Source of the DNA: a virus
Taxonomy: Duplodnaviria; Heunggongvirae; Uroviricota; Caudoviricetes
IMG/VR virus record: IMGVR_UViG_2778261686_000005
Direction: 5' to 3' (one strand)
Length of the DNA: 4,739 nucleotides
This document shows positions 1 to 4,739 of the stretch, in pieces (position 1 is the stretch's first letter; each line of letters starts with the position of its first letter). The notes beneath the pieces are model-generated. The model had not been told where the DNA came from. It did no database searches and was given only the letters and a program-made list of their open reading frames with translations. The position numbers were made by a program, and so were the translations under genes.

Positions 1-897
1 ATGCTTCCATCGGAAACGATGATCTGGCAGCCTGAGTTCACAGATAAAACACTCTCCAGGAAACCCGGGGCGGTTCACCTCCATGCTGATCCAAATAGTT
101 ACTTTAGTGTTCAAGAGAAGCAGCAAGGGCAGAGCATTGCACAGCAGAACGCAGATACATCTGCATATAATGCTCAGGTTAATGCGGAACAGGGTAATCG
201 GCGTCTCGATATGGAGCAGTTCAAAGTCCTATCCGATAACCAACTACGCACGAGAGAAATGGTTCTGAAAGCACGACTTGGACGTGCTCAAAATGACATC
301 GAGAGAGACAAGCTCAATGCTGAACTGAGCAAGGTACAGCAGGCGAAAGTGGAGAAGATGAACGATAAAATTAATACTGTTACAGGTAACATCGACTCCT
401 TGAACTCTGCGCTTGAAGTGGGTCATGAACTGGCGGGAATTGTAGGGAAACATCCTTCGGCCGTTACCCGCTCGCAGAACTATAACCCCCTGACGCTGGG
501 GTTTGGATTCCTTCCTGATGTAGCAGAAGACACACGAAGCCTACGCGCCAAAGCTGATGAATACAACCTAAAGGTTATTCTGCCTAGCCTCAAAGGGACT
601 TTTGGCTCTAACCCAACCGAAGGGGAAAGGGCTGCCCTTATGCAATCTCAAAATGGCATTAAGTCAGCAACCAGCAATGAGGCATTTTTGCGAGAGTTGA
701 ATAAAGCGCAGGACGTAATTATTCGAATGCAGAAACGACAGATTGCCGGGCTCGGTATTCCTGTAACCAAATCAAAGGACGAAGAAACTGATACCAAAAT
801 GCTGTTGCAGGATCCTTCACTGGTTAAGGATTATGTGACCGCACATGGCTATCTGCCGGAAAGTTACTATCAGGCAAAACTTAAGGGATGGCAATGA
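1..897 (+). CDS. Phage internal virion / ejection (DNA-transfer) protein, C-terminal portion; probably 5'-truncated by the window edge
   Basis: The frame is open from base 1 to TGA at 895-897 (298 codons) with coding-like composition. It contains a charged helical, coiled-coil-like stretch (LKARLGRAQNDIERDKLNAELSKVQQAKVEKMNDKINTVTGNIDSL). Its stop overlaps the start of the next gene. The ATG at 1-3 is probably internal, with the true start upstream of the window. The product is inferred only from its position immediately upstream of the SLT-domain protein (the gp15/gp20-like position in podovirus ejection-protein operons); I see no catalytic motif. Confidence 0.7.
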   Translation: MLPSETMIWQPEFTDKTLSRKPGAVHLHADPNSYFSVQEKQQGQSIAQQNADTSAYNAQVNAEQGNRRLDMEQFKVLSDNQLRTREMVLKARLGRAQNDIERDKLNAELSKVQQAKVEKMNDKINTVTGNIDSLNSALEVGHELAGIVGKHPSAVTRSQNYNPLTLGFGFLPDVAEDTRSLRAKADEYNLKVILPSLKGTFGSNPTEGERAALMQSQNGIKSATSNEAFLRELNKAQDVIIRMQKRQIAGLGIPVTKSKDEETDTKMLLQDPSLVKDYVTAHGYLPESYYQAKLKGWQ

Positions 898-3614
898 TGG
901 CACAACTGACAGAAAAACAGAAAGCCTATTCCCGTCATCTCGATGAAAAATATGGTTTCCCATCAGGGACGATGGAAACATTAGTTGGCAATGAATCTAG
1001 TGGTAACGGAAGTGCCGAGTCACCGAAAGGAGCTAGAGGATTTGCTCAACTGATGCCCTCAGTAATGAGTGATGCTGGTTATCGTGGAACTGATCCGCGC
1101 TCACTGCCATTTGAAAAGCAAATGGATATCGCAGCAAACCATCTCAATAAAGGAATGAAGCGATTTGGTGATATAGGTATGGCATTGGCTGGGTATAATT
1201 CTGGCTATGCTCGTATTAATGCCGTCAGAAACGGTAAATCTACACTGCCAGATGAAACGGCTAATTACGTAAGTAAATTTGCAGATGCCGGAATAATCCC
1301 TGATGACAGTGAAATCTTGCAGTTTGCACAAACCAGTCAACATCGCAATCTTCAGCAGCCTGACTACTCGGAGCTGGATAAAGAAATCTCTCAGGTGGGA
1401 GATATTTCTGCATGGGAAGCAAAACGTCAGCAATTTAAGAACATAGAAGCAGGACTACCAACAGCCAGTTCATGGGAGCAGAAAAGAGCTCAGTTTCTCG
1501 CCGATGAAAATGCCGGGGAACCGCAGCAGCAAGTAGCCAAGTCTAACCTTAATCCTGAGATGGAATATCTTTCGCCAGGACTGAAAGCTGCGCCAGAGCA
1601 GATGGCCAGAGGGATTGCTAATATACCGTTTGATGTAATGGACGCAGGCGTGGGGGTAGTCAATGCGGCGCAATCAGCCGGAGCATGGGCAGCTCAGAAG
1701 CTTGGTGTGGGTGATGGCACATACACGCCCATATCACCTGTCTTTCGCCCAGTAGACCAACCTACAGATCCATACGCGCAGGCTGGTGAGCAGCTAGCAC
1801 CTTACCTTATTACAGGATTAGGCGCAGGAAAGGCAGCTACCGCAGCTTCTTCAGTTGCCAACGCTCCACGTGCTGAACGTGCGGCCACAAAGGTGGCTAG
1901 TATGTTGGCAGAAAACCTGCCAGGTACATTGGTGAACGCCCAAAAGAACGGGCAGATCAGCCCAGAAGACCTAGCAAAAGAGACAGGTATTGGCCTAGCA
2001 GGATCGCTAGGAGCACGCGCTTTAATAAAGAGCGGACAGACAGCCAGTGACGTAATGCGAGATGTATTGCGGAGTAATACAAATCAATCAGGCCATGTGT
2101 TAGGGGCAGCAAATACTCTGGAAACCGCCAATGATGTATCGAAAGCAGCGCGTTCTGCCGTAGGCCGAGAGCATATCGCATCGCAGGCATCAAACGTCAG
2201 AGATGATGTCGCTAAGGCGGCGAAAATCACTGGTATTAATATCAACACCCTGACGCCTGGAATGCGCTCAGGTAGTCGTGGAATTGCCCAAGCAGAAGGT
2301 GTTCTGGCATCAACTCCTGGGAATGTTCAGGATGCTCACCTTACGGCCTTCAATGAAATATCCTCAAAGTTGAATAAGCAGTTGTCTGATTTCGGTGCTG
2401 AGTCTGGAAGCGCATCAGAAAAAAGCGCAGCAATTAAAGAGCGCATCATCGCGAGCCTCAGTGATATGAAAACAGCAGAGAATATGGCATGGGCAGAACT
2501 GCGAAGCACGATGCCACGCGAAAGGATGAAAATGAGTAATGGGATGGCTGTCGTCCAAGCAGAAAAAGCAGCCAATGTTCCACTCAGCCCGGAGATGAAA
2601 CAGTTTCAGGCTGCCAACAACCAAGGTGGCGGCATAACCTTCGACGGGATGAAGGCATGGCGTGCTAAGTTTGCTGATGCTGAACAAGCAAACACCCGGG
2701 CAGGTAAGGCCAATGCCGCCCGGATTGCCGGAGAAATGCGCAGAGCTATCACTGATGACATGCGCATCATGGCTGAAAAAGGAAACTTCCTCACAGAATG
2801 GCAGAAAGCTAACGATCTCTCTAAAAGTTACATTATCGCCAAACAAAATGCCGAATCTGTTTTTGGTCGAGATCTCGCATCAGACGCTATGGTAAGAAAA
2901 GGTGCCGATACGCTTAAGGCATCCGCAAATACTGGAACGGGAGCTTTTCACCGCCTTATCTCCGCGCTGCCGGAAGCAGAACGCCAACCAGCAATAGCAT
3001 CTATTCTTCAGCATGCTGTGGCGCAGGGAGAGAAGGGAGGAATCGGTGAAGAGTCTGGTATCCAGTATTTTGCCAAGCTCATGACCCAGCAGAATGTAAA
3101 CGCCATCAGTCGTCATGCGCCAGATCTCGGTAGAATGATGAAAGAGTTCGGTGTACTCGCTAAAGCCAGCACCAGACCGCAGCGATACGTAGAGCGCACG
3201 GGAAGAACAACTGAGGCTCTCAAAACGCTCGATTCAGGCCTTCCAAAGATCGTCGGTGTGATTATGAACGGAGTTCAACAGTCAGGTGCGATCGCTGGAG
3301 GCTTTGGCGGTGGTGTAATTGGTTCGATTAGTGGTTTGGTTGCTGGTGGCGCACTGAGAAATACTGTGGCTAAGATTGGGGCGACAAGAAGTGGTCGATA
3401 TGCGATAGAGAAAGCCGTTCAGGAAGCTACAAAAGCAGTGCGCGCAGGGGCATCACCAGCAGCGATCGCCGCAGCAGAGAAACGATTTTCGGCCAATAAA
3501 ATTGCCATGAAAGCAATTCGTGATGCCGTTGGGGCTGAAGAATTCGTGAAACTGACAAGGGCCGGGATTGTAGCTACCCTCAGTGGCATGAAAGATGTTA
3601 GCGAATGGGAATAG
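888..3614 (+). CDS. Phage internal virion / DNA-injection protein with N-terminal lytic transglycosylase (SLT) domain
   Basis: 908-codon ORF ending at TAG 3612-3614. The N-terminus carries a family-1 lytic transglycosylase signature: a Glu-Ser pair (E36-S37, nt 993-998) in VGNESSGNGSAESPKGARGFAQLMPS, followed by ALAGYNSGYARI (the A-Y-N-x-G motif, Y103-N104 at nt 1194-1199). The body is Ala/Gln/Glu-rich and probably helical. Gly-rich hydrophobic segments occur mid-protein (PYLITGLGAGKAATAAS, GIGLAGSLGARALI) and near the C-terminus. Start is ambiguous: the SD-like AAGGG at 883-887 abuts ATG 888 but is well spaced for ATG 894 or 897, so the true start is more likely 894 or 897. Confidence 0.88.
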   Translation: MAMMAQLTEKQKAYSRHLDEKYGFPSGTMETLVGNESSGNGSAESPKGARGFAQLMPSVMSDAGYRGTDPRSLPFEKQMDIAANHLNKGMKRFGDIGMALAGYNSGYARINAVRNGKSTLPDETANYVSKFADAGIIPDDSEILQFAQTSQHRNLQQPDYSELDKEISQVGDISAWEAKRQQFKNIEAGLPTASSWEQKRAQFLADENAGEPQQQVAKSNLNPEMEYLSPGLKAAPEQMARGIANIPFDVMDAGVGVVNAAQSAGAWAAQKLGVGDGTYTPISPVFRPVDQPTDPYAQAGEQLAPYLITGLGAGKAATAASSVANAPRAERAATKVASMLAENLPGTLVNAQKNGQISPEDLAKETGIGLAGSLGARALIKSGQTASDVMRDVLRSNTNQSGHVLGAANTLETANDVSKAARSAVGREHIASQASNVRDDVAKAAKITGININTLTPGMRSGSRGIAQAEGVLASTPGNVQDAHLTAFNEISSKLNKQLSDFGAESGSASEKSAAIKERIIASLSDMKTAENMAWAELRSTMPRERMKMSNGMAVVQAEKAANVPLSPEMKQFQAANNQGGGITFDGMKAWRAKFADAEQANTRAGKANAARIAGEMRRAITDDMRIMAEKGNFLTEWQKANDLSKSYIIAKQNAESVFGRDLASDAMVRKGADTLKASANTGTGAFHRLISALPEAERQPAIASILQHAVAQGEKGGIGEESGIQYFAKLMTQQNVNAISRHAPDLGRMMKEFGVLAKASTRPQRYVERTGRTTEALKTLDSGLPKIVGVIMNGVQQSGAIAGGFGGGVIGSISGLVAGGALRNTVAKIGATRSGRYAIEKAVQEATKAVRAGASPAAIAAAEKRFSANKIAMKAIRDAVGAEEFVKLTRAGIVATLSGMKDVSEWE
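960..1262 (+). other. Lytic transglycosylase (SLT, family 1-like) catalytic domain within the 888..3614 CDS (approximate boundaries)
   Basis: Motif order E-S ... G-A-x-G-F-A-Q-L-M ... A-G-Y-N-S-G matches the conserved order of family-1 LT motifs (catalytic Glu-Ser, a G-L-M-Q-like block, A-Y-N-x-G). Boundaries were estimated by eye, not from an alignment. Confidence 0.7.
3249..3356 (+). other. Glycine-zipper-like hydrophobic segment (putative membrane-insertion region) near the C-terminus of the SLT-domain protein
   Basis: Residues ~788-823 read IVGVIMNGVQQSGAIAGGFGGGVIGSISGLVAGGAL. This is a long uncharged stretch with repeated small-x-x-x-small spacing, typical of membrane-inserting or channel-forming helices. 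Confidence 0.5.
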
Positions 3615-3764
3615 ACGCTCTAACTAACAAAACCATAATAGCCAAGGACGGCATACTGATATTGAGCCAACTATAAAAATTCCATATCACATTACGAGCC
3701 TGTGGCTTACATTCGCTTACAGTGATGATAATTTATAACCACGCAATTCTTAGGTGAGATTGTC
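3615..3764 (+). promoter_or_regulatory. AT-rich intergenic region with putative promoter and ribosome-binding site for the lipoprotein gene
   Basis: 150-bp non-coding spacer, visibly AT-richer than the flanking structural gene. A strong SD AGGTGA at 3752-3757 sits 7 nt before ATG 3765. Candidate -10-like hexamers are GATAAT (3727-3732), TATAAC (3734-3739) and TATAAA (3672-3677); a weak -35-like TTGAGC (3662-3667) lies 17 nt before TATCAC (3685-3690). I could not find a -35/-10 pair with a convincing consensus match, so the promoter position is uncertain. Confidence 0.3.
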
Positions 3765-3815
3765 ATGATTAAAAATCTTCTTTTAATATTATCCCTGTCA
3801 TTATTGGCTGGATGC
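3765..3815 (+). other. Type II (lipoprotein) signal peptide with lipobox LAGC
   Basis: Lys3 supplies the positive n-region, followed by a hydrophobic h-region (LLLILSLSLL) and the lipobox L14-A15-G16-C17. Confidence 0.8.
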
Positions 3816-4463
3816 GTACAAAAACCGTTAGTAACGGTCAATGCTTTATCCTCCGGGCAATCTGTCGGTAAGAAGTTCTTGATCATCCCCGCAAGCCAAG
3901 AACTTTGGAACACCAAACAGATTGAATACACTCAAATAGCTACGGTAGTAGCCGCCAGTTTATCAAGCCAAGGATATATACAAGTTAAAGATGAAAAATT
4001 GGCTGACCAGGTAATTCTCTTGAACTTTTTGAGAAGCGGGGCCATTTCAAATACTCGTAATGTAACCATCCCAATATACGGGCAAACTGGTGTGAGCTCA
4101 GCAACAACGTACGGAAACTCGAACACCACGTTCAATAGTTATGGTGGTGGCTACGGTACAGCTAATACCACTGGAACGGCAACAACAGTTTATACGCCTA
4201 CTTATGGAATTACTGGCGCGTATAACACAACTGTGACGGACACGTTCTACGGCGCAGGGGTGATACTCCAGTCGTTTGATGCCAAGGCTTATCTCAATAA
4301 TAGGCAGATTAATATGTTATGGAAAGTTGGTAGCTCAGTCGTCTCGCAACAGTCTGATGGAATTGCTGATTACAAAGGGTTGGCGAGAATAGCCGCTAGC
4401 TATGCCGGGAAAAATACAGAAGGTGATATAACTTTTAATGTTGACCCTAAAGCACCAAATTAA
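3765..4463 (+). CDS. Lipoprotein of unknown function (probably outer-membrane), phage accessory/moron gene; candidate superinfection-exclusion or defence factor
   Basis: 232-codon ORF with a good SD. The N-terminus MIKNLLLILSLSLLAGC is a signal peptide ending in a lipobox (L-A-G-C, Cys17 at nt 3813-3815). Residue +2 of the mature protein is Val, not Asp, which under E. coli Lol sorting rules predicts outer-membrane localisation. The gene has lower GC and AT-rich codon choice (ATA, TTA, AAA) compared with the upstream genes. A GC-rich hairpin follows the stop. I do not recognise a characterised family. Confidence 0.85.
   Translation: MIKNLLLILSLSLLAGCVQKPLVTVNALSSGQSVGKKFLIIPASQELWNTKQIEYTQIATVVAASLSSQGYIQVKDEKLADQVILLNFLRSGAISNTRNVTIPIYGQTGVSSATTYGNSNTTFNSYGGGYGTANTTGTATTVYTPTYGITGAYNTTVTDTFYGAGVILQSFDAKAYLNNRQINMLWKVGSSVVSQQSDGIADYKGLARIAASYAGKNTEGDITFNVDPKAPN
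4077..4259 (+). repeat. Low-complexity Thr/Gly/Tyr/Asn/Ser-rich segment inside the lipoprotein CDS (protein-level quasi-repeats, not a DNA tandem repeat)
   Basis: Residues ~105-165 read YGQTGVSSATTYGNSNTTFNSYGGGYGTANTTGTATTVYTPTYGITGAYNTTVTDTFYGAG. By manual count roughly 30% are Thr, with recurring T-x-Y-G / Y-G-x-T units and no charged residues except one Asp. The flanking sequence has ordinary composition. Confidence 0.6.
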
Positions 4464-4470
4464 CTAATAA

Positions 4471-4486
4471 GCCCGGTACGCCGGGC
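4471..4486 (+). terminator. GC-rich hairpin 8 nt downstream of the lipoprotein stop; possible intrinsic terminator
   Basis: GCCCGG-TACG-CCGGGC forms a perfect 6-bp all-G:C stem with a 4-nt loop. The sequence after it (ATTCATGCCCCTATTATTC) is T-containing but not a clean U-tract, so it may act as a weak terminator or an RNA-stability element. Confidence 0.35.
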
Positions 4487-4739
4487 ATTCATGCCCCTAT
4501 TATTCATGAATCGCTTTTTCTGGAAGGTATGCGACAAACGTTAAGTGACATTGCCTACACATTCGGGGCGGGATTTCAAATCCGCTCCCAGTTGATGGGG
4601 CCGTTACAGTACGCGCATATCCGCTTTATGTGAAACAGGAAGATTTTTCTGATATCACTGCCTGGATTTGCCCCTATATTTCCAGACACCTGTTATCACT
4701 TAACCCATTACTGGCCTGCTGCCGCAGATATTCCCGTGG

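Follow-up and report, generated by a model that had tools for sequence, protein, structure and literature searches.

The window analysed here is a stretch of 4,739 nt from a tailed-phage record (IMG/VR IMGVR_UViG_2778261686_000005, Caudoviricetes), in which a gene for a lipoprotein lies directly behind genes resembling those for the DNA-ejection proteins gp20 and gp16 of phage P22. We assign a probability of about 0.68 to the reading that positions 3615-4489 form a self-contained "moron-type" cassette, composed of an AT-rich leader with a good ribosome-binding site, a gene for a predicted outer-membrane lipoprotein, and a hairpin, which has long been linked to the ejection module and may function in exclusion. 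The window is an assembly fragment with insertion-sequence (IS) ends at both borders. Its positions 76-4662 are 100% identical to the chromosome of Escherichia coli 214-4 (locus L001), where the intact carrier is a 19.3-kb island (L001 7790-27127) between yicC and dinD. In 72 complete E. coli genomes, over 80% of the window is present.

Cargo behind the ejection genes in related islands

For islands of this type from other Enterobacteriaceae (L002-L005), and for one on an IMG/VR contig (L023), alignment with the window ran without a break from 74 to 4489, and divergence set in directly past the hairpin that closes the cassette. A related Leclercia island (L009) carries the same module, with 88% (gp20) and 84% (gp16) amino-acid identity, without the lipoprotein gene; its homology to the window stopped at the gp16 stop codon by blastn and ~40 nt later, past a shared 12-mer, by alignment. 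The cargo in this position of L009, on the minus strand, comprises a 73-residue lipoprotein (12749-12973; lipobox LLASC; phrog_9924) and a 105-residue protein with a signal peptide (12990-13310). The sister island of E. coli ACN001 (L038, 839-12629) occupies the same site between yicC and dinD, has a DUF5906 primase and a different gp20/gp16 pair, and encodes a 130-residue polytopic membrane protein on the minus strand after gp16. Beyond this gene, L038 contains a segment 97% identical to L001 24490-24975, followed by genes for AbiD (a PADLOC match) and PerC. The first 98 nt of the L001 segment are window positions 4565-4662, and ~450 E. coli genomes matched the window at these positions alone. 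Against the ACN001 island, the block from gp14 to the lipoprotein gene was one exchange unit. The lipoprotein gene was also absent beside 13 more distant gp16 relatives that we examined (Tatumella, Pantoea, Arsenophonus, and others).

The left edge of this region is marked by the 12-mer GCCAAGGACGGC. Its family pattern, GCCAWGGANGGC, occurred exactly once, 9-35 nt past the gp16 stop codon, in all nine loci with the type of gp16 that bears a lytic transglycosylase (SLT) domain, including cassette-less L009 and two Serratia prophages, amid intergenic DNA that could not be aligned, and nowhere else in the 42 loci. A consensus RNA fold around it contained an invariant 3-bp stem alone, with no covariation.

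To judge from these alignments, what follows directly on the last ejection gene is a variable slot in which small envelope proteins accumulate, and comparison with relatives supports a modular accessory cassette at ~3653-4489. The edges given in a preliminary description of the window (3615 and 4486) were thus essentially correct. The alignment of related elements that it had proposed found different cargo in the slot of L009 and L038 but no empty site between two conserved flanks: the left flank (gp16 and the 12-mer) is kept in L009 and the right flank (4565-4662) in ~450 E. coli islands, no relative with both flanks and an empty site was found among those compared, and a clean presence/absence indel was not demonstrated.

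Age of the linkage to gp20 and gp16

Nucleotide identity between the E. coli island and L002, L003, and L023 was 0.80 for the lipoprotein gene, 0.78-0.81 for gp16, and 0.74-0.79 for gp20, and identical codons made up a fraction of 0.52-0.53 of those at conserved residues in the lipoprotein gene, against 0.50-0.56 in the ejection genes. Because nucleotide and codon divergence are equal, the cassette has co-diverged with its neighbours; the combination of 88% amino-acid identity with only 53% codon identity at conserved residues indicates that the lipoprotein gene is under purifying selection. In P22-like prophages of Serratia, the lipoprotein gene has the same position, between the SLT-gp16 gene and the Arc/tailspike genes, and amino-acid identity to the E. 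coli proteins is 62-63% for the lipoprotein, 59% for gp16, 45% for gp20, and 56% for gp7. In P22 itself, sieA adjoins gene 16, and the region between gene 16 and Arc/tailspike holds both sieA and immI. The cassette was present in 74 of the 74 E. coli genomes that carry this island, and no E. coli genome had this gp16 without it.

By these comparisons the linkage of the cassette to the ejection genes is old, its insertion is not recent, and the island probably captured gp14, gp7, gp20, gp16, and the lipoprotein gene together from a P22-like phage. The separately acquired moron of the preliminary description therefore holds up insofar as the segment is a discrete accessory unit that occupies a variable slot, and fails as a recent acquisition, given the equal divergence, the Serratia synteny, and the carriage by all 74 genomes.

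The lipoprotein and its family

The N-terminal sequence of the lipoprotein matches the lipobox pattern [LVI][ASTVI][GAS]C, with MIKNLLLILSLSLLAG immediately before the cysteine, and this cysteine is nearly invariant (at least 90% of 27 aligned family sequences). Under the Lol rule of E. coli, lipoproteins whose +2 residue is not Asp are sorted to the outer membrane; the +2 residue here is Val or Ala, not Asp, which predicts outer-membrane sorting.

An AlphaFold2 model computed from the 27 sequences (mean predicted local distance difference test score, pLDDT, 86.6) consists of an alpha/beta domain broken by a beta-hairpin of ~90 residues (residues 82-172) with invariant GQTG...PTYGxTG motifs, which Foldseek aligned with the membrane stems of beta-pore-forming toxins. 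Profile PF13590 (DUF4136) matched 19 of the 27 aligned members at E<=1, and the window lipoprotein itself scored 11.6 bits, below the 32.8-bit gathering threshold. The protein is a distant DUF4136 relative whose modelled fold is like that of PelC, TraT, and CsgG, with a long beta-hairpin. The window lipoprotein did not match the TraT profile (PF05818), and one of the 27 family members reached E=0.035; with no profile match and a different membrane element, we rejected membership in the TraT family. Comparison of the family profile with Protein Data Bank (PDB) sequences gave a spurious cytochrome match alone (E=0.016), Foldseek against the BFVD viral structures gave nothing meaningful, and papers mentioning DUF4136 gave no function.

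A profile search recovered 3,888 cluster representatives (664 with E<=1e-30), and close or intermediate homologues occur in E. coli, Kluyvera, Pluralibacter, Salmonella, Serratia, Rouxiella, and Vibrio. Every context examined, all of close relatives, was a mobile element, and the gene mostly lay beside DNA-delivery genes. In a second podophage lineage (L007, L026, L028, L029) it follows genes for three large internal-virion proteins, among them a "tail injection transglycosylase" and an "internal virion protein with endolysin domain", and precedes the tailspike gene. Homologues are also found in a lambda-like Rouxiella prophage, where gpK (NlpC/P60) lies on one side and the gpJ region on the other (L040 8001-8699), just upstream of the tape-measure gene of a myovirus (L024), in a Vibrio fluvialis island next to a reverse transcriptase (L041 8001-8708), and at the cargo end of a metagenomic island with integrase, AlpA, and Toprim genes (L042 8001-8651).

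Size and source of the drop in GC content

The G+C content (GC) was 0.500 at 1801-1860, 0.496 in the gp16-like gene (888-3614), and 0.466 in the gp20-like fragment (80-897), compared with 0.380 in the spacer, 0.375 in the first 120 nt of the lipoprotein gene, 0.423 in the whole gene, and 0.416 in 3615-4463. Successive 60-nt windows passed from 0.50 (3555-3614) to 0.40, 0.35, 0.28, 0.43, and 0.50; the dip was deepest at ~3615-4100, and the second half of the gene had a GC of 0.44, with 200-nt windows up to 0.46-0.475. The GC of 3615-4463 was lower than that of all 849-nt windows within 80-3614 (minimum 0.438; chi-square P=1.3e-4). The drop is real, beyond chance, and modest in size, and the preliminary description had measured it well: ~50% GC in the structural genes at 1801-1860, an AT-richer spacer and first 120 nt of the lipoprotein gene, and a shift that starts directly after the TAG at 3612-3614.

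As a sign of foreign origin, however, the drop is weak. GC at third codon positions (GC3) was 0.403 in the lipoprotein gene, against 0.413 in gp16 and 0.451 in gp20 (0.421 for both together), which places the gene at the 20th percentile of their 233-codon windows, whereas GC at first positions (GC1) fell from 0.595 to 0.425, with 0.541 as the lowest value for any structural-gene window. Thr, Tyr, Ile, Val, and Asn are abundant in the lipoprotein, and Ala, Glu, Arg, and Met are scarce. When its amino-acid sequence was held fixed and synonymous codons were drawn from gp20/gp16 usage, the expected GC was 0.448 +/- 0.011, compared with 0.425 observed and 0.489 in the structural genes, so that amino-acid composition accounts for ~4 of the 6.6 points of the drop (~60%). 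The residual codon effect of ~2.3 points was small, though significant (P=0.023; for GC3 alone, P=0.26). Of the three codons that had been called frequent, TTA (7/20 Leu codons vs 4/82, P=8e-4; five of the seven within the first 28 codons, which encode the signal peptide) and ATA (7/17 Ile codons vs 10/59, P=0.049) were enriched, but AAA was not (38.8 vs 39.8 per 1000 codons). The proposed sliding-window and codon analysis thus returned a lower total GC and more TTA and ATA, but no shift in GC3. Five of nine other intergenic regions of the island were equally AT-rich (0.35-0.42), and the spacer GC of 0.38 is ordinary for this island. The drop comes mainly from a protein rich in Thr, Tyr, Asn, and Ile and poor in Ala, Glu, and Arg, together with a normal AT-rich leader and signal-peptide region, to which TTA and ATA add little. 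Because GC3 is unchanged, the drop is mostly an amino-acid effect, and the spacer is ordinary, composition alone is no proof of separate acquisition.

The family as a whole does look like mobile AT-rich cargo: homologues in several unrelated phages were strong outliers, with GC3 0.20-0.39 below that of their neighbours. In the window, the low GC3 of the ejection genes themselves nearly erases this signal. A caution follows for similar cases, in that total GC may drop by 7 points through amino acids alone, and the proper tests are GC3 and comparative breakpoints.

The carrier island

The island in E. coli 214-4 is bounded by 22-nt imperfect direct repeats (TGTACATAGAGGTGTACATAAT), with no tRNA gene at its ends. 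Its genes encode, in order, an integrase, an AlpA-type regulator (PF05930), AntA/B, Ash (PF10554), a Zn-ribbon/Toprim/DUF927 primase, gp14 (DUF2824), gp7 (PF25688), gp20, gp16, the lipoprotein, small open reading frames (ORFs), and PerC. The preliminary description had placed the cassette in a prophage structural operon; this proved mistaken, as no coat, portal, terminase, tail, or tailspike gene was found in the 19.3-kb island of E. coli 214-4, and likewise in L002-L005 and L009. An integrase, an AlpA-type regulator, and a primase-replicase in an island of 10-20 kb that lacks most virion genes give the element the architecture of an enterobacterial phage satellite, similar to phage-inducible chromosomal islands (PICIs) or P4, with a P22-like ejection module as its sole virion genes. 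Of 5,426 complete E. coli genomes, 74 carried this island; the sister type was found in ~450. Literature searches for satellites or PICIs with ejection-protein genes found no description.

Two other features of the island were observed. A hypothetical gene for 281 residues beside the integrase (L001 9224-10069), without a Pfam or PADLOC match, has the lowest GC (0.397) and GC3 (0.351) of the island and is a stronger GC3 outlier than the lipoprotein gene. Downstream of the cassette, a 23-nt motif, ATTTCGTGACCAGTACGCGCGCG, occurs three times (L001 24602-24624, 24888-24910, and 26858-26880), and similar strings lie downstream of the cassette in L002 and L023.

Proposed function and alternative explanations

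The SieA-like gene position, the kinds of protein that fill the slot elsewhere, a fold like that of TraT, and the consistent mobile-element context suggest, by analogy, that the lipoprotein is an outer-membrane exclusion factor against incoming DNA delivery, an assignment that is tentative and that we put somewhat short of an even chance. In such a mechanism, the lipoprotein would be exported via Sec, Lgt, and Lol to the outer membrane and would oligomerise through its PelC/TraT/CsgG-like domain and its long Thr/Tyr/Gly-rich beta-hairpin. The altered envelope would then block podophage-type DNA delivery, either at the trans-envelope channel formed by ejection proteins or at the murein hydrolase that they carry, and the outcome would be superinfection exclusion to the benefit of the resident element. 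The more far-reaching proposal of a new family of ring-forming outer-membrane exclusion proteins, with a barrel of beta-hairpins, that act against the podophage DNA conduit or hydrolase and travel with private P22-type ejection genes on undescribed satellites seems rather doubtful.

Several observations weigh against a self-contained exclusion cassette. The window lipoprotein had no match in Pfam, PHROGs, NCBIfam, or PADLOC; tblastn found no homologue in 50,697 deposited phage genomes; and distant members of this large family may often be ordinary chromosomal genes, the contexts described above being those of close relatives. An oligomeric ring with a beta-barrel would be an extrapolation from a model of the monomer. 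A consensus promoter scan returned only 9/12 sites (3612-3639 and 3760-3789), which did not exceed those in shuffled sequences, and did not report the candidate that we read by eye (3706-3734); no convincing promoter for independent expression in the resting island was found. In the Serratia phages the lipoprotein gene abuts or overlaps the upstream late gene, with gaps of 0-40 nt, an arrangement that suggests late co-transcription, not prophage expression. Finally, the hairpin is followed by T8 in L002-L005 and L023, making a canonical intrinsic terminator, but other sequence stands in place of the T-tract right after the stem in both the window and E. coli 214-4 (4487-4500, compared with L002 10843-10851). 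A second, overlapping hairpin at 4483-4496, followed by CTATTATTCA, may stand in for the lost T8. In L002-L005 (10001-10120), the 12-mer holds an AAGGAGG ahead of an in-frame ATG upstream of the lipoprotein start. Translation from this ATG would add 40 codons, give proteins of 271-272 residues (P0002-P0004, P0010), and leave the signal peptide buried; a mis-called start or a leader could account for it, and the window has stop codons there.

If the lipoprotein were instead an ancestral partner of the ejection operon, acting for instance in envelope penetration or virion release, there would be no separate unit and the GC drop would be a pure by-product of its amino-acid content. The unchanged GC3 and the ~60% share of amino-acid composition in the drop fit this account, as do the co-divergence with gp20/gp16, the presence of the gene in 74 of 74 E. 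coli carriers, and its place directly behind ejection genes in several phage lineages (at 0-40 nt in Serratia). We consider it quite unlikely, because the gene is absent from L009 with its equally similar gp16, from 13 other gp16 relatives, and from all deposited phage genomes searched, has its own hairpin terminator in relatives, and has homologues located away from any ejection genes, beside a reverse transcriptase and on small primase islands. Moreover, to our knowledge a lipoprotein exported by Sec and Lol cannot enter capsids along with ejection proteins, and we rejected a virion component on this ground. A recent and independent horizontal insertion of a foreign AT-rich gene, as the preliminary description would literally have it, could explain why total GC lies under that of any equal-sized window of the upstream genes, why TTA and ATA are enriched, and why the breakpoints are sharp; it is very improbable, and we rejected it, because, across island lineages, the gene has diverged as much as the neighbouring gp20 and gp16 genes at both nucleotide and synonymous level, the Serratia prophages share the synteny at comparable protein identity, GC3 is indistinguishable, and no E. 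coli genome has this gp16 minus the cassette.

Two alternatives accept an accessory gene and differ on its role. A conversion factor for host interaction or virulence, conferring serum or complement resistance or adhesion in the manner of TraT, Bor/Iss, or HpaA, is unlikely: the fold does resemble those of HpaA and of TraT (itself a complement-resistance protein too), the lipoprotein is predicted to lie in the outer membrane, and carriers include gut isolates of E. coli from humans and animals, but homologues turn up across environmental Serratia, Rouxiella, Vibrio, and metagenomic phages, the gene position is tied to DNA-delivery genes and not to virulence loci, and TraT membership finds no support at the sequence level. 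T4 Spackle, which inhibits the gp5 lysozyme, provides a precedent for an inhibitor at the periplasmic face that neutralises a virion murein hydrolase, here the SLT domain of gp16-type proteins, whether incoming or self. Presence of the lipoprotein in eight of nine loci with SLT-gp16, and elsewhere behind modules with a "tail injection transglycosylase", an "internal virion protein with endolysin domain", or an NlpC/P60 gpK, would agree with such a role; fold searches, however, gave no likeness to known lysozyme or transglycosylase inhibitors, the adjacent gene lacks a hydrolase domain in L007 and L029, the SLT-gp16 loci L009 and L010 lack the lipoprotein, and islands without a nearby phage hydrolase have it, making this role improbable.

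Comparison with known systems

Morons are accessory genes inserted between conserved late genes, a concept that comes from the lambdoid phages HK97 and HK022. The cassette resembles them as a single accessory gene between conserved modules with a putative terminator hairpin and a lower total GC than its neighbours, as well as in its sporadic distribution among relatives and the other cargo in the same slot of sister elements. It differs in its unshifted GC3, its lack of a convincing private promoter, its old linkage, and a carrier that is satellite-like and not a complete phage.

Llp (T5), Cor (phi80/N15), and Ltp (TP-J34) are phage exclusion lipoproteins encoded beside receptor-binding or DNA-delivery genes. 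Ltp reportedly targets the tape measure, and one homologue of the window lipoprotein (L024) lies just upstream of a tape-measure gene; no similarity to the three proteins was detected in sequence or fold, and the likeness is one of gene position and protein class only.

For P22 SieA, PMC10461980 describes an exclusion protein with escape mutations that map to gp16/gp20, and the legend of Figure 4 there says that a genome diagram shows the location of sieA. The parallel with the window is a gene for an envelope protein beside ejection gene 16, and the targeting of gp16 and gp20 by SieA (PMC10461980) would provide a rationale for keeping an exclusion gene beside the genes for these ejection proteins. 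SieA is, however, a small inner-membrane protein, whereas the window protein is a predicted outer-membrane lipoprotein of 232 residues with an unrelated fold and no PHROG or Pfam family in common. TraT, through which F-like plasmids exert surface exclusion, is a decameric lipoprotein (PMC11733297; PDB 9fs5, 9fsm, 9e2v) with an alpha-helical transmembrane barrel, in contrast to the ~90-residue beta-hairpin of the window protein; its effect is on conjugation and not on phages. Among the lipoproteins compared with the window protein (DUF4136 [PF13590; e.g., BT2437, PDB 4f54] and the ring lipoproteins PelC, LptE, and CsgG), the DUF4136 core lacks the large conserved insertion (GQTGVSS...TYTPTYGITG) of the window family.

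Features of the window

The gp20-like gene is cut by IS629, with ~167 codons lost from its start, and the ORF with an ATG at position 1 is a chimera. The intact gene in L001 encodes 439 residues and is annotated in RefSeq as "phage DNA ejection protein"; its relatives match PF16928 (Inj_translocase). There was also a weak match to phrog_2534. In the gp16-like protein, residues 17-119 match PF01464 (SLT; E=1e-12), and the protein matches phrog_770 (DNA transfer protein; E=2e-120); relatives match PF26808 (Phage_P22_gp16), and the RefSeq start of the gene corresponds to window position 894. At the right border, IS2 interrupts the 104-residue ORF that starts at 4630. The island in the source strain is thus decaying through IS629 and IS2 damage, with the lipoprotein gene still intact.

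Table 1. Features of the window, and copies of the 12-mer in related loci (positions are those of the window unless a locus is named)
Feature	Position	Strand	Evidence or remarks
IS629 end	1-79	.	Positions 1-78/90 match IS629 ends in ~180 phage records; match to intact island begins at 76
P22 gp20-like DNA-ejection protein gene, 3' part (from ~codon 167)	80-897	+	See text
gp16-like ejection (DNA transfer) protein, 908 residues, N-terminal lytic transglycosylase (SLT) domain	888-3614	+	PF01464, phrog_770
AT-rich spacer/leader, 150 nt, GC 0.38	3615-3764	+	Last ~60 nt are the best-conserved portion among cassette-bearing islands
Conserved 12-mer GCCAAGGACGGC, family pattern GCCAWGGANGGC	3641-3652	+	Left edge of variable slot
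Candidate weak promoter CTTACA, 17 nt, TG-n-TAATTT	3706-3734	+	Reading by eye; kept in L002/L003/L023
Shine-Dalgarno AGGTGA, 7 nt upstream of ATG	3752-3757	+	Sequence; relatives keep GGTGAG
Lipoprotein gene, 232 residues	3765-4463	+	Signal peptide; lipobox LLAG before Cys17 (3813-3815); Val at +2
GC-rich hairpin GCCCGGTACGCCGGGC closing the cassette	4471-4486	+	Homology with L002-L005/L023 stops at 4489
Right-flank segment	4565-4662	+	95-99% identity with cassette-less sister islands; holds GTG start (4630) of 104-residue ORF
IS2 end (IS3 family)	4663-4739	.	100% matches annotated "IS3-like element IS2 family transposase"; match to intact island ends at 4662
12-mer copies	L002-L005 9984-9995; L023 9819-9830; L009 12738-12749; L006 9971-9982; L039 7932-7943

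Implications

A moron-type accessory gene for a lipoprotein is of a known kind, and the lipoprotein family and the satellite with ejection genes are the more interesting leads. If the island is indeed a satellite equipped with ejection proteins of its own, it would represent a new piracy strategy. The lipoprotein belongs to a large uncharacterised family whose close relatives reside on mobile elements, which makes it a testable candidate for a new mechanism of exclusion at the level of the envelope.

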